From positions 32,001-96,000 of IMG/VR virus record IMGVR_UViG_3300032038_000007: DNA of 64,000 bases. One strand, written 5' to 3'. The notes under the pieces are model-generated. The model searched no databases and had not been told where the DNA came from. It saw only the letters and a program-made list of their open reading frames with translations. Below are positions 7,897 to 30,558 of the stretch, one piece after another. Every line of letters starts with the position of its first letter. Position 1 is the stretch's first letter. The position numbers and the translations under genes were made by a program. This stretch comes from a virus (lineage: Duplodnaviria > Caudoviricetes).

Positions 7897-10243
7897 TGGA
7901 TATATAGGTTAGGTTCGTATAGGAACTAATGATTATAAAATAGGCTCTACATTATATGCAGTTTGTAGTGAAACAGGGCAAAATAGAACTGTTGTAATTG
8001 AGGGATTTGCTATAAGTACTGGCGTTACAGTACATATTAAATTTGAACATGGATATACTGATACCGCAAATGCTCCTACTTTAACAATTAAATCCAGCAG
8101 TAGTGACTCAGACGCGCTTCCTTTTGATATTATTAATGCTAATGGCCCCGAAACATGGAGCGATGGTAGTGTAATTTCTTTAACACTTACAGGAACTTCA
8201 ACAGATAATTATAAATGGGCTATAAATAGCAGTGCTATTGACGGCTCTTCTATTTAGAATCTTTCTTTAGGTTAGATAACTAGCGCCGGCAAAATTGCCG
8301 GAAAAGCTTCATAGGCTGTAGTAACAAATGCAAGCGCGGAAATTACTGCTATTAATTTAGCTGTTGCAGACCCGGATGCTGATGGTACTGGTTTAACTTT
8401 TATTGATACTATTTCTTAGAATTCTTAGGGTAAAATTACAGCCACTAAAAGAACAGTTTAGAGTGCTTCTCGTGAGCAGGCTGGCGTCATTCAGTTGCCT
8501 AGTGGTACTACTACAGAAAAATTTCTACGTGAAGATGGAACTTGGATAAAACCTTCATATATAGCAAATACAGATACTAAAATACGTGTTTATTTAGCTA
8601 CTAATTCCACTGGCGTAGAATTACCATTAGTTGGATTAAATAGCGGCAATGCCACCGCGGCTTATGCTACTCATACTTCTGGCACAAAAGATGTTTATGG
8701 TGCAATCCCTAATACTGTTGCTAATCGTGCGACAATCAATTCCAAAACTGGCGCCATTACTGTGCCAGGGGGTATTATTGGTAATGCTTCTACAGCAACT
8801 AATTTCTCAGCGGCAAAAAATATTGCCTTAACAGGCGATATTACCGGTAATGCAGATGGCGGAGCTTCTGGCGGATGGTCAATTTCTACTACAATTGGAG
8901 CAGGCAAAGTTACTAATGATATGCTAGCAGGCTCAATTGCCATTACTAAATTAACCGCTTCTACAATTGCTATTGGCACTTAGACTAAATCATTAGGGCA
9001 ATCTTTTGATACCGCAAAATTAGTAACAGATTTAGGCTTGTCATCAGCGATGAAATATAAAGGTGGAGTCGCTTCTTTGCCAACGGCTACTAGCAGCACT
9101 ACTTTTAGTACTTATAATGCGGGTGATGTAGTAACTATTACTGGAACTACTAATCAAGGAAAAGAATATGTATATAATAAAGGTGCAACAGCCGCGGCTT
9201 CAAGTTGGGTCGAATTAGGAGACGAAAGCTCATATAAGGTAAAGCAAGATGCAGTAACAAGTCCGTCAGTACCAGAGTCAGGCCCCAATTCTGAGACTGC
9301 TTTTATTGATACTATTACTTAGGACGTTAATGGCGTTATAACCGCGACAAAAAAGAATGTTAATTTCCCAGTGACTTCTGTTGCAGGAAAAACCGGCGCG
9401 GTGACACTAAGTAATACGGATGTCGGCTTAGGTAAGGTAACCAATCACGCATAGGTTACATCAATAACTTGGAGTAATAGCACTTTAAAGCAATCTATTA
9501 GTGGCGGAACTGCTACTGATATTGTTACGGCTAGTACATTAAAAAGCGCAATGTCCTTAAGTAATGTAACTAATGATGCACAAATTGCAAAATCTATTGG
9601 TACAACTAAAGGCGATATAATTTATTTTGATGGGGCTTCAAGCCCAAAGAGACTAGATATTGGGACAGCAGGACAAGTTTTAACTGTTTCTGATTCAGGA
9701 ATACCGGCTTGGGAAGCTAATGCTTCAACTGATGAAAAGGTTGAACAAATTCCATATAATGATGGCACAAATGATAAAACTTTTAATCTTTTATTTAAGC
9801 ATACAAATAATGATACAAAAGAAACTAATAATGTATATTATTCTACTGTATCTAGCAAGAAATTAACATTTAATCCTAAATCTGGTACTTTAAGTGCTAC
9901 AAAATTTAGTGGTAGCGGCGCTGGATTAACTACAAAGTCAGTTCCTTTAACTGCATTAGCTGATTATGATGGAACTGGGACTAAATTTTTACGACAAGAT
10001 GGATGGAAAACAGTTAGTGTATCGTTAACTGGTTCTACAAGTACAAGTAAGACTGTAGTTACTAATGTTACATTTAATCAAGGTAGTTTTCCAACTTTAG
10101 GTGAATCAGGCAAGGCCGCAAAATTTAACGTTAGCAACGGTGTGCTAGAAATTACAGCTGGTAGCGATGCCGCATTAAGCAGTGGCACATTGCCTTCTCT
10201 CGGAACAATTAGCAGAGCAACATTAGGAATTACAGGAAGTTAA
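7889..10243 (+). CDS. Tail fibre protein (TAG=Gln)
   Basis: ATG 7889; ORFs 8495, 9038 and 9551 are in frame; Thr/Ser/Gly-rich; motifs GNASTAT, VTSVAGKTGAVTL, KGDIIYF..RL.IGT.GQVL. Confidence 0.75.
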
Positions 10244-21271: not shown

Positions 21272-23320
21272 ATGGCAATAGATATAGTTGACATCCTTCT
21301 TGCTCGCGCAAAATCTTTTACTGGAGAAACAAAAACTCTAGTATAGCAAGCTCAGGCTGCAATGTCTGATGCTAACGATATAGTCGATAGGCTATCTGAA
21401 ATACAATAGGACACGCAAGAAGCTAACGAATCGGCTCAGAATGCGGCGGATCGCGCGCAAGAAGTTGCTAGTGACTTAGAACAAATGCGTAATGACGTTA
21501 CCGCCGCAGCTCAAGAATTAATAGATGACTCTATAACCGCAAGTTTAGTTGATGTAAATTCAGATATTACTGAATTGCAAAATAGTATTACTAATATTAA
21601 TAATACTGTTGTTCCAGAACTACAGGCTCAAATTGCGGCCGCGGCTCAAAGTGGCGGTGACAAGGTTACTATTAGTGATAACAACAGTAATGCCGCAAAA
21701 ATACGTAATGCAGTTATTAATGACTCAAATTCCTATGTAGTAGAAAAGAATTATACTTCTACTGGATTAAATGAAGACGGCTCCATGACACAAAAGGCTA
21801 TTACTAATGCCTTGACCGCAACCAAAAATGAAATTGAAGCGGCTATTGATGCAAAATTAGCTAATATTACTATCAGTGGCGGTGGTGGAACTATTAATCT
21901 TGGTATTGATAATGAAGGGCATTTAGTAGTTATTGGTGTAAACGGACAGCCGATTGCGGCGGCTGTAACAGAAACAGATGTAATTGAATCTCTAATTAAA
22001 TCTGGTTCTTATCATTTAGAAAATACTGTCGGCTTAGAAATGGATTATGAAAATAAGATTTTTACTTCAACTTAGGACAATATGTCTACAGAAGAAATCA
22101 ATAAATTACCAATGTTTGGCGGCAGAAAACGTTGTAATGTTGCAGATGATGGCACTATTACTGCTTTCTACGGCGAATCTAATTATCGCGAGGACGGATC
22201 AAATGGCCAAGTAATGGTATACCAGCCGAAATTCTATTATCGTAGGGTTATTACTAAATCAATTTAGGCAGCTAACGGGCAGGTTTCGAAAAAAGAAAGT
22301 CTAATTATTTCTCCAATAAAACTGACTTCTAGTTTTAAAATTCATCCATTATTTATTAATGAATTAGGGGAAGAAGTTGAATATGTATTGTTGTCTGCTT
22401 ATGAAGGTAGCATTTATAATACTTCGTCTAGTAGTTATGATTTAACTTCTGAAGCAGAAATTAATCTTGAAACAGATAAATTAAGCTCTATTGCAGGCGC
22501 TAAGCCAGTCACTGGTTATACTCATCCTAATTTTACAATGTTAAATGCAGAACATCTTGCAGTTAATAGAGGTACTGGATGGCATATAACTAATCTTGCT
22601 TTTGAAAGCGCTCAACAAATGCTCATGAGCATAGAGTATAGTACTTTAAATGGATAGGCAGCTTTAAAACAAGGAATTGTAAACCTTCCAAGCGCTTCTA
22701 ACGCTAATAATGCTTGCATCACAGGTTCTACATCTGCATTAGGCAATAGCAGTGGTGAAGCCGAGTCTTCAACTGGAAGTATAGACGGAGTACAATAGAC
22801 ATATACAGAAGAAGGTAAACTAGCAATTACTTATAGAGGATTAGAAAATCCATGGGGAAATACTTGGAGATATGTCGGTGGTTCTTTTGCATATGGTACT
22901 GGATTGAATACTGGCGGCAAGCTATATATCAATACTGATTTTAATTATAGTTTGAACGTATCAGCGGCGAATATTTATCATTTAAACTGCACTCTTCCTG
23001 GCGGTTATAACTGGGTTTCTTCTGTCTTTGCTTTTGAAGATTAGGATGACTGGATTTATCTACCTGCAGAATTTTCATCTGCAAATAGTGCCTTACCAAT
23101 TGGAGATGTACTGTGGACAACGCCATATTTAAATGGAACTAATTCATTGCTGGCCGGAGGAGACTGGGATAGTAAATTAGAAGCTGGACTTTACTCTTAC
23201 GCTTGTGATAGAAAGGCTGATACAGTATCTAGTAGTATTAACGCTCGTTTAATGTATATTCCAGTAAAGAACGCTTCATATACTGCAAATATAACAAAAT
23301 GGTAGGCGCTGGGGGTGTAA
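21272..23320 (+). CDS. Tail-associated protein with coiled-coil N-terminus (TAG=Gln)
   Basis: ORFs 21485, 22082 and 22388 are in frame. Motifs DGSNGQVMVYQPKFYY, HPLF, SAYEG and YRGLENPWGNTW. Ends TAA 23318. Confidence 0.75.
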
Positions 23321-23998: not shown

Positions 23999-24027
23999 TT
24001 GACTTTTTTAAAAAATTCTTATATAAT
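23999..24027 (+). promoter_or_regulatory. sigmaA/sigma70-type promoter, first of about 19 copies
   Basis: TTGACT-17 nt-TATAAT. Similar sites at 25315, 25929, 27242, 29992, 30704, 33765, 36026, 38940, 45918, 48049, 48523, 51133, 52680, 53645, 55755, 58549, 58636 and 61168. Confidence 0.85.
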
Positions 24028-24469: not shown

Positions 24470-24543
24470 GGCCTGATAGCTCAGGTGGATAGAGCAACAG
24501 CCTTCTAAGCTGTAGGTCAAGGGTTCAAATCCCTTTCGGGTCT
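24470..24543 (+). tRNA. tRNA-Arg(UCU)
   Basis: Acceptor GGCCTGA/TCGGGTC; anticodon arm ACAGC-CTTCTAA-GCTGT; T-loop TTCAAAT. Confidence 0.9.
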
Positions 24544-24804
24544 CTTAGCGGTCGTCTGTGACAGCCGTCTGCAGAAAAAGCCACAGACGTATAGTGAGTC
24601 AACGTGAATGACTACCGGTAGTTCTACTATAACGTAGTTAGTCCGGAATAACATAGTAGGCAGTTTCCATATTTGCTGAACAAATATGGAAGTGCGCGGC
24701 AGCTTTTGAGAATGAGCCGTCTGGTTATGCGAAATAACTCGATTTGAGGAGCGTCGAATAGCTTCTTAGCCATGCTATACGAGGGTTATGGCATGGCTTT
24801 ACAT

Positions 24805-24894
24805 TGGGGCGTAGTTCAATGGCAGAACACCGGTCTCTAAAACCGTTATATCCCTCTGAAGGAGGTGGTCTGGGTTCGAGTCCCAGCGCCCTAG
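24805..24894 (+). tRNA. Amber suppressor tRNA(CUA), tRNA-Trp-like body with long variable arm, likely charged with Gln
   Basis: TGGGGCG TA GTTC-AATGGCA-GAAC A CCGGT-CTCTAAA-ACCGT, 23-nt variable region, CTGGG-TTCGAGT-CCCAG CGCCCTA G; anticodon CTA at 24837-24839. Confidence 0.88.
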
Positions 24895-24943
24895 CTTACT
24901 CTATTAAAATAAAAATAATATGGAGCGTTTATCGCTCCACTAC

Positions 24944-25016
24944 GCTCCTGTAGCTCAGTTGGTAGAGCATTTGACTTTTAATCAAAGCGTCGGCGGTTCG
25001 ATTCCGCCCAGGGGCA
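24944..25016 (+). tRNA. tRNA-Lys(UUU)
   Basis: Anticodon arm TTTGA-CTTTTAA-TCAAA; canonical D and T arms. Confidence 0.92.
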
Positions 25017-25060
25017 CTTTTTATATCTCTTACAATTAATTAGAATAGGAGGTATGATAA

Positions 25061-28156: not shown

Positions 28157-28232
28157 GGGAGCATAGCTCAGTTGGGAGAGCACTTGCCTTACAAGCAAGG
28201 GGTCATAGGTTCGAGCCCTGTTGTTCCCACCA
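28157..28232 (+). tRNA. tRNA-Val(UAC)
   Basis: Anticodon arm CTTGC-CTTACAA-GCAAG; encoded ACCA. Confidence 0.93.
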
Positions 28233-30051: not shown

Positions 30052-30125
30052 TGTCTCGTAGCTCAATTGGTGAGAGCAATCGCCTTATAAGCGATAGGTT
30101 CTGGGTTCAAGTCCCAGCGGGACAA
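30052..30125 (+). tRNA. tRNA-Ile(UAU)
   Basis: Anticodon arm ATCGC-CTTATAA-GCGAT; acceptor TGTCTCG/CGGGACA; A73. Confidence 0.88.
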
Positions 30126-30313
30126 CTGTGCCACGCACGCTTAGACTCACCCGTGTACGCGGACCAAGCGTGGACTTACAAAAACGGAAAATCGTCGCCG
30201 TTTACAAGGACGCGACGGTCGAAGTGATTATCGACTCGATACGACCTGACTTTCGTAGGGCCAAACGGGATGCCGAAAAGAAAGCCTAATCAGCGAGTAT
30301 TTTCGGCTATTGA

Positions 30314-30386
30314 TGGGGTATAGCCAAGTTGGCAAGGCAACGGACTTTGACTCCGTCATTCGCAGGTTCAAGTCCTGCTGCCCCAG
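30314..30386 (+). tRNA. tRNA-Gln(UUG)
   Basis: Acceptor TGGGGTA/TGCCCCA; anticodon arm ACGGA-CTTTGAC-TCCGT. Confidence 0.92.
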
Positions 30387-30395
30387 CATTTATAT

Positions 30396-30472: not shown

Positions 30473-30537
30473 GCCGGGTCTGGGAGAGCCGCGGTTTTAT
30501 AAACCGCAGGTTGTCGGTTCAAATCTGACACCCGGTT
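30473..30537 (+). tRNA. D-armless tRNA-like gene with anticodon UAU
   Basis: Acceptor GCCGGGT/ACCCGGT; anticodon arm GCGGT-TTTATAA-ACCGC; T arm GTCGG-TTCAAAT-CTGAC; only 11 nt in place of the D arm. Confidence 0.65.
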
Positions 30538-30558
30538 CTTAATAAAGGAGGAATGACT

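Follow-up and report, generated by a model that had tools for sequence, protein, structure and literature searches.

A phage amber suppressor tRNA of the su+7 type with a putative spare glutamine anticodon arm

Phage suppressor tRNAs and the recoding of TAG to glutamine are already well known (10.1101/2021.08.26.457843; PMC10607447; PMC9523058), whereby the way such suppressors get charged is an open question (Borges et al., 10.1101/2021.08.26.457843). A close described tRNA is E. coli su+7 (supU), an amber tRNA-Trp that is charged with Gln, with U35 as a main determinant for GlnRS (PMC9976931). The Gln identity elements comprise U35, G36, the 1-72 and 3-70 pairs, the discriminator base and the 10-25 pair; GlnRS depends on both U35 and G36, and changes in the determinants cost up to 10^5-fold (PMC9976931). 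The same job in the same setting is found in the TAG-to-Gln ('code 15') phages, such as phAss-1 (OQ749652; PMC10607447), the crAss-like phages and the Lak phages: a tRNA cluster, TAG-rich late genes and no synthetase. For its tRNA-Sup-CTA, the phAss-1 paper gives only a Gln isotype call (PMC10607447), and the published accounts consulted on the suppressors of code 15 phages are likewise confined to the anticodon and the tRNAscan isotype, with an extra arm or a Gln loop unmentioned. Variable regions longer than 10 nt which form a hairpin are a feature of class II tRNAs (Ser, Leu, bacterial Tyr, Sec) and of the allo-tRNAs (PMC5389517). Moreover, synthetases bind anticodon-like hairpins outside tRNA, the thrS operator being an example; such mimics are known from the E. 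coli thrS mRNA operator and the yeast AspRS mRNA (PMC9976931).

The window, i.e., the whole stretch of 64,000 nucleotides analysed here, belongs to a single virus contig of 166,616 bp which CheckV rates as 95% complete. Under the standard code its long frames were broken, and taking TAG as a sense codon gave ORFs of 5,990, 3,143, 2,203 and 2,049 amino acids. In-frame TAG codons number in the hundreds in the late genes, including those for portal, tail and virion proteins (PHROGs matches), and are absent from a block of replication-type genes. The amino acid placed at TAG was judged at the codon level, with the relatives taken as DNA, so that translated databases could introduce no bias. When the portal gene was compared with 21 relatives, the columns opposite TAG consisted, for example, of 16 CAA and 1 CAG, 19 CAA and 1 CAG, or 20 CAA and 1 CAG, and some of these relatives had no TAG altogether. 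Within the window, the same question was put to the tail protein gene (phrog_5302; 21272-23320, plus strand), which contains 8 in-frame TAG. Against 31 relatives, all five of its conserved columns (at least 70%) opposite TAG were Gln, three of them with 29-31 Q each, at a background Gln frequency of 3.4% in the tail protein set. In the portal and tail codon comparisons Trp was never found opposite TAG, and Tyr, Ser and Leu were minor there and never conserved. By these comparisons TAG is read as Gln in the phage, as the first-pass annotation of this DNA had supposed.

The tRNA gene in question (24805-24894, plus strand, as are its parts described below) measures 90 nt up to the discriminator G73 at 24894, with CCA not encoded. 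ARAGORN reports it as a 91-nt tRNA with the anticodon CTA at 24805-24895, and its cloverleaf scores 56 bits with the Rfam tRNA model RF00005 at 24805-24894, the gathering score being 29. Among the 17 tRNAs of the genome, it is the sole one with CUA, which it carries in the canonical loop; together with the in-frame TAG in essential genes and their reading as Gln, this identifies the gene as the one encoding the amber suppressor tRNA of the phage. It lies in a cluster between tRNA-Arg (24470-24544) and tRNA-Lys (24944-25017), both called by ARAGORN, as was the phage's own tRNA-Gln(UUG) at 30314-30387. A consensus scan located a sigma-70-type promoter-like site, TTGACT-17-TATAAT (11/12; 23999-24027, plus strand), upstream of the run formed by tRNA-Arg, a 255-nt spacer, the suppressor and tRNA-Lys. 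Such a near-consensus site would be compatible with early expression.

The 5' strand of the acceptor stem, UGGGGCG (24805-24811), pairs with CGCCCUA (24887-24893), and the pairs read from the sequence are U1-A72, a G2-U71 wobble and then five G-C or C-G. The D arm (24814-24828) is type I and Trp-like, with a 4-bp stem GUUC/GAAC and a 7-nt loop, and aligns with the D arm of E. coli tRNA-Trp. One nucleotide past the D stem, which is the canonical position, begins arm 1, the decoding anticodon arm (24830-24846), with the stem CGGU/ACCG, a mismatched top pair C27-U43 and the loop CUCUAAA holding the anticodon CUA at 24837-24839. The 4-nt linker UAUA (24847-24850), whose equivalents across related tRNAs vary from 0 to 6 nt with modes at 1 and 4, joins it to arm 2 (24851-24863), the candidate spare Gln anticodon arm. 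In the register supported by covariation (see below), its stem UCC/GGA (24851-24853 with 24861-24863) closes the 7-nt loop CUCUGAA (24854-24860), and CUG at 24856-24858 takes the loop positions 34-36. The following GGUGGU (24864-24869) corresponds in the alignment to G43 and the variable loop (GUGUU) of E. coli tRNA-Trp; the stretch from arm 2 to the T stem measures 5-7 nt in related amber tRNAs, with a mode of 6. The T arm CUGGG-UUCGAGU-CCCAG (24870-24886) has 98.7% of its cells paired in the family alignment, with compensatory changes. The acceptor/T configuration is 7/5, and the variable region, taken from the anticodon stem to the T stem, has 23 nt. Hence U1-A72, G73, the anticodon CUA and the 23-nt variable region, which the first-pass annotation had listed, can all be read in the sequence.

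G73 is also the discriminator of E. coli tRNA-Ser. A variable region of 23 nt might be taken as a mark of a class II (Ser/Leu/Tyr-type) suppressor, and the label tRNA-Pyl given by ARAGORN as a mark of a Pyl-type one, with UAG read as a residue other than Gln. The chance of this is close to negligible, considering the invariant Gln columns opposite TAG, where Ser, Leu, Tyr and Trp are nearly lacking. In contrast to class II tRNAs and allo-tRNAs, the window tRNA combines a 4-bp D stem with an extra arm that has an anticodon-like loop of 7 nt and is flanked by unpaired linkers of 4 and 6 nt, and the TAG positions bear no Ser/Leu/Tyr signal; the loop motif is rare in Ser/Leu/Tyr tRNAs (5 of 134). 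The allo-tRNA configurations, 8/4 or 9/3, do not agree with an acceptor stem of 7 bp and a T stem of 5 bp. The label tRNA-Pyl was attached by ARAGORN to every CUA tRNA found, and the normal D arm and the 23-nt variable region do not agree with the compact architecture of a tRNA-Pyl, with its short variable loop and small D loop.

The body of the suppressor resembles tRNA-Trp. When 5,426 complete E. coli genomes were searched with blastn, 5,432 places were matched in 5,425 of them, one place in nearly all and two in a few, and all eight matches listed were tRNA-Trp, 90.2% identical over positions 2-41. This bears out the earlier statement that the 5' half resembles bacterial tRNA-Trp and is much less like the phage's own tRNA-Gln, which indeed aligns poorly with the suppressor. 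In the phage collection, the closest database relative was one of the phAss-1 tRNA-Sup-CTA genes, and the next-best matches were tRNA-Trp genes. The 88-nt phAss-1 tRNA shares the anticodon arm and the extra arm with the window tRNA (89.9% over positions 14-82) but has a different acceptor stem and D arm. When the suppressor was compared with about 640 phage tRNAs labelled by anticodon, Trp came first among 20 isotypes by both maximum and median identity, with Gln below it. The anticodon loop CUCUAAA differs from the CUCCAAA of tRNA-Trp by one change, C35 to U, and the rest of arm 1 is the same in both. In the alignment with E. coli tRNA-Trp, the suppressor carries 18 additional nt between positions 42 and 43; the other changes are A1-U72 to U1-A72, C71 to U, a different T stem and a few scattered bases. 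After removal of the anticodon arm, the identity to E. coli tRNA-Trp over the acceptor, D and T arms was 78%.

In the tree, the nearest rows, with or without the anticodon arm, were a sibling suppressor (L044), E. coli tRNA-Trp and Trp-type opal suppressors. Past the sibling, no branch had strong support, nor did any that would join the suppressor to Trp, the weakness being due to such short sequences (about 70 nt). A tRNA-Gln would have YUG in the anticodon arm and a Gln-like body; in the window tRNA this arm carries CUA, and CUG is confined to the extra arm. From the acceptor-end set of E. coli tRNA-Gln, U1-A72, G3-C70, G73 and G10 are present and 2:71 is G-U, but since G2, G3 and G73 are common to tRNA-Trp, this set does not tell Gln from Trp. 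The tRNA-Trp-like character of the acceptor stem, D arm and anticodon arm is supported by these sequence comparisons. An origin from tRNA-Trp by the su+7 route, as first proposed, is supported, as far as such short sequences permit, by the best matches and the tree neighbourhood: the Trp matches, the one-base loop change and the Trp-type neighbours stand behind it, and the phylogeny places the tRNA near Trp, albeit not on a strongly supported branch.

Compared with su+7, the likeness thus lies in the Trp-type acceptor stem, D arm and anticodon arm, with C35 to U as the only change in the loop, and in the reading of UAG with insertion of Gln, which is established for su+7 (PMC9976931) and for the window tRNA is deduced from the codon comparisons. 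As opposed to su+7, which is a laboratory mutant with A1-U72 and a 5-nt variable loop, the window tRNA is a natural phage gene with U1-A72, G2-U71 and the 18-nt insert forming a second hairpin with a Gln loop.

For the insert, the minimum-energy fold of the single sequence was an 8-bp hairpin with a GAA loop (-31.0 kcal/mol), close to the CCTC/GAGG hairpin proposed at first, in which C34 and U35 of the spare loop would be paired; the register with the 7-nt loop came to -25.6 kcal/mol, i.e., 5.4 less stable. The relatives decided otherwise. Viral contigs were scanned with the 15-mer of the anticodon arm, which gave 116 loci and 107 CUA tRNAs, about 45 of them 84-95 nt long; the pattern fixes a Trp-type anticodon arm, and the amber family so gathered reaches as far as that arm. 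Its members share ancestry, so the counts that follow cannot be taken as separate events. The collected tRNAs were highly diverse in their acceptor stems and D arms. A hairpin with YUG at the loop centre was present in 32 of the 39 distinct long CUA tRNAs, with its three inner pairs formed in 31, 31 and 24 of the 32, respectively.

In a MAFFT alignment of 31 related tRNAs, the loop-closing pair was CG in 24, the pair 55:65 was CG in 13, GC in 11 and UA in 2, and the pair 54:66 was UA in 14, CG in 6 and GC in 4; across two pairs of the 7-nt-loop register, both sides were changed in 24 cells. In the rival register, the pair 59:65 was unpaired in 11 of the 31 and another pair had 14 unpaired cells. 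Despite its best single-sequence energy, the CCTC/GAGG hairpin is therefore ruled out as the conserved structure by the family pair counts, and that part of the first-pass annotation falls. What compensatory changes keep is the 7-nt loop, and they support a 3-bp stem UCC/GGA with the loop CUCUGAA as the conserved structure. Three base pairs is what the window tRNA has; across the amber family the spare stem varies from 2 to 5 bp and is followed by 5-7 nt to the T stem. As regards the rest of the molecule, the acceptor pairs 2-7 were formed in essentially all 31 relatives, with compensatory changes, and the pair 1:72 was mismatched in 13 and A-U or U-A in 15, which makes it weak or mismatched in 28 of 31. 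This weakness would fit the importance of 1-72 for Gln identity. In comparison, G2-U71 in the window tRNA and C3-G70 in many relatives deviate from the identity set of E. coli GlnRS.

The spare loop, C32 U33 C34 U35 G36 A37 A38, is that of a tRNA-Gln anticodon loop (CUG) and differs from the decoding loop CUCUAAA only at position 36. The loops CTCTGAA, CTTTGAA and TTTTGAT, which are borne by spare arms of the amber family, also occur in the same phage data as true tRNA-Gln anticodon loops. The only common variation at loop position 34 was C or U, both of which give Gln anticodons. A scan for opal suppressors was made with the same arm pattern in its UCA version, and the occurrences were counted over distinct sequences. 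Among 46 long CUA tRNAs, U-YUG-R occurred in the extra arm of 29 and U-CCA in that of 2; among 35 long UCA tRNAs, the respective numbers were 0 and 26; and among 134 ordinary Ser/Leu/Tyr tRNAs, 5 and 0. In the UCA tRNAs, the loop of the extra arm reads CTCCAAA or GTCCAAA, as the anticodon loop of tRNA-Trp does, and most of the remaining long UCA tRNAs looked like the Sec type. The opal extra arm, whose stem of 5 bp is separated from the T stem by about 4 nt (3-5), hence forms a full second anticodon arm, canonical with respect to the T arm. In terms of sequence, then, the arm displays the anticodon of the amino acid given to the recoded stop in two separate systems. In the window tRNA, it is the hairpin between the anticodon and T arms, with CUCUGAA at 24854-24860, that shows the anticodon of the inserted amino acid.

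Neither chance nor a decaying duplication easily accounts for such a parallel, Gln with amber and Trp with opal. It can be argued that the extra arm is a neutral relic of a tandem duplication, or a hairpin of general stabilising use, with U35, G73 and the weak 1:72 sufficing for Gln. The opal extra arm, with its 5-bp stem and 4-nt region, does look like the anticodon arm copied straight, which is what a duplication would produce, E. coli su+7 works without any extra arm (PMC9976931), and there is none in many phage CUA tRNAs whose anticodon arm is the same. Since the latter make up about 60 of the 107, the arm is not needed for suppression in general. A neutral relic should decay, yet the loop U33-Y34-U35-G36-A37 is kept while the stem covaries, position 34 commonly varies only between the two bases which preserve a Gln anticodon, and the pairing of Gln with amber and Trp with opal is nearly exclusive (29 and 2 versus 0 and 26). 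We consider such a neutral or merely stabilising arm rather unlikely.

Our main reading, to which we assign a probability of roughly 0.55, is that the tRNA would be an su7-type suppressor whose spare Gln anticodon arm recruits the Gln-charging enzymes of the host; we infer the role of this arm from two things, its conservation and the Gln/Trp parallel. A tRNA-Trp ancestor would have taken the su+7 route, whereby U35 would move the identity from TrpRS to the Gln system, and the pair 1:72 would have switched from A-U to U-A. The anticodon CUA is without G36, which GlnRS would need for binding and catalysis, and because of this lack the tRNA would display a second, cognate anticodon arm with CUG. 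The host GlnRS, or a non-discriminating GluRS where GatCAB is used, would read the spare arm as the Gln identity mark, and arm 1 with CUA would be the arm used on the ribosome. For this, the anticodon-binding domain of the enzyme would have to reach a hairpin that branches off at the top of the anticodon stem. Occasional decoding through the spare arm would still not lead to mistranslation, its anticodon being that of the amino acid loaded. Early synthesis of the tRNA from a promoter of the host type is probable and would open the translation of the TAG-rich late genes. The nearest precedents, the hairpins of the E. coli thrS operator and the yeast AspRS mRNA, are similar in being anticodon-like and outside a tRNA anticodon arm; by analogy, the difference would be that they sit in mRNAs and repress translation, whereas the mimic proposed here sits inside a decoding tRNA and would promote its charging.

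The enzymes for this would have to come from the host. A search of the 95%-complete genome with the synthetase, amidotransferase and release-factor profiles PF00749, PF00579, PF02934 and PF00472 found no class Ib/Ic synthetase core (GluRS/GlnRS, TrpRS/TyrRS), no GatB and no RF-1 domain, and without a Gln-charging enzyme of the phage's own, the host enzymes must charge the suppressor. The look at the rest of the genome for synthetase and release-factor genes recommended by the first-pass annotation thus told against its own suggestion, according to which the long arm may block TrpRS or recruit a dedicated synthetase, here taken as one encoded by the phage. A synthetase gene is indeed present in some recoded phages, such as the TrpRS of the Jade phages (10.1101/2021.08.26.457843), and with a Trp-like body the rejection of TrpRS is a real need. 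The Trp-inserting opal suppressors, on the other hand, bear an equivalent arm, for which reason the arm cannot be a general anti-TrpRS device. Besides, the change of C35 to U by itself takes away a major determinant for TrpRS. Either version of this suggestion is regarded as highly unlikely.

The spare arm may also act after charging or apart from it, either as a switch with two stackings that reads UAG and CAG, or as a decoy or shield, against host anticodon nucleases or for a tRNA-modifying enzyme. Phage tRNAs are often discussed as counter-measures to the cleavage of host tRNA. The geometry might allow a switch, as arm 1 is canonical with respect to the D stem and arm 2 is followed by a stretch with the length of a variable loop (5-7 nt in amber, 3-5 nt in opal tRNAs), and G 24864 could pair with C27 to form a three-way junction. 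The calculated stability of the three-way-junction fold was lower, at -20.7 kcal/mol, and the phage already encodes a tRNA-Gln(UUG). A decoy, moreover, would leave unexplained why the anticodon of the arm exactly matches the inserted amino acid in two independent systems. Action of the arm outside charging is therefore given a small, though appreciable, chance. Recruitment of the charging enzymes by the spare arm remains the preferred reading.

On this basis, the finding is classed as a putative su+7-type suppressor of natural phage origin that bears a spare cognate anticodon arm. The full-text literature searched, in which subscription journals are incompletely covered, yielded no account of suppressor tRNAs with an anticodon-like extra arm. 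We tentatively extend the proposal, at somewhat short of even odds, to phage suppressors with two anticodon arms at large: one would decode the stop (CUA or UCA), and the other would present the host synthetase with the cognate sense anticodon, which is CUG/UUG for Gln and CCA for Trp. If true, this would be a general and previously undescribed uncoupling of the codon read from the identity seen by the synthetase, and the assignment of identity and decoding to different arms would be new as a principle of tRNA identity. That recoding is almost always of TAG to Gln and of TGA to Trp would be explained too, because both synthetases depend strongly on the anticodon. For the question of charging left by the main survey of recoded phages (10.1101/2021.08.26.457843), it offers a concrete hypothesis. 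In practical terms, the second arm would, if so, aid in finding and classifying suppressor tRNAs in viromes and could be a natural template for engineering efficient suppressor tRNAs which unmodified synthetases still recognise.

Some clues to the host were obtained as well. Shine-Dalgarno motifs precede 32 of 52 gene starts, which argues against a Bacteroidota host. The same tRNA design was found on a few contigs of bacterial MAGs, all of them Bacillota (Acutalibacteraceae, Lachnospiraceae and one unclassified), binning being a weak link. The Gln pathways differ among these MAGs: a true GlnRS without GatB is encoded in two, and the reverse, GatB without GlnRS, in one.

The reading of TAG as glutamine is unevenly distributed among the relatives of this phage. 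In-frame TAG codons were absent from the portal genes of the comparison loci L130, L131, L134, L135, L138 and L141 and from the tail genes of L390, L394, L397 and L408-L421. These TAG-free relatives have a portal identity of 60-68%, and they stand beside other relatives carrying 2-9 in-frame TAG in the same genes, so the recoding is patchy even among the close relatives of the phage. Within the genome itself, a minus-strand frame of 467 amino acids located outside the window (positions 8718-10121 of the whole phage contig, G000:C1) contains 19 in-frame TAG codons, a density far above that of the structural genes.

The long CUA tRNAs with a spare arm, i.e., a second hairpin between the anticodon and T arms with an anticodon-like 7-nt loop (centred on CUG, a glutamine anticodon, in the suppressor at 24805-24894), occur in several variants. 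Phage phAss-1 has two adjoining CUA tRNAs, one of 72 nt without the extra arm (L001:2910-2981) and one of 88 nt possessing it (L001:2988-3075), which makes them a natural pair for testing the contribution of the arm. Larger forms were found in two other loci: a 99-nt tRNA (L028:3481-3579), wrongly labelled by ARAGORN as having a four-base anticodon, with a 6-bp spare stem and the loop GUCUGCU, and a 97-nt tRNA (L376:854-950) with a 5-bp spare stem and the loop CUCUGAA. The 86-nt CUA tRNA starting at L065:2834 has a Ser/Leu-like body and an extra hairpin with the loop CGCCAUG, in which CCA is central. It is an exception to the rule of a glutamine-type loop, which may have arisen either by chance or from a different identity of this tRNA. 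In the MAFFT alignment of 31 spare-arm CUA tRNAs, the acceptor pair 1:72 (columns 2 and 97) was mismatched in 13 sequences, for example, as U-U or A-C; a mismatch at this position is unusual in elongator tRNAs.

The 255-nt stretch between tRNA-Arg and the suppressor (24545-24800) yielded neither a tRNA with ARAGORN nor an Rfam match, and presumably shares one transcript with the suppressor. Further downstream, the tRNA cluster includes a Group I intron (RF00028, 28559-28809; 62.8 bits against the Rfam threshold of 50), at whose site ARAGORN called no tRNA. A full-length match to the 'drum' RNA (RF02958, 28049-28155; 75.8 bits against the Rfam threshold of 43) adjoins tRNA-Val (28157-28232) on its upstream side, also within the cluster. 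Directly after tRNA-His lies a 66-nt tRNA-like call for Ile (UAU) at 30473-30538, barely passing the Rfam threshold (29.9 against 29). It is additional to a good tRNA-Ile(UAU) at 30052-30126 and is possibly a degenerate copy.
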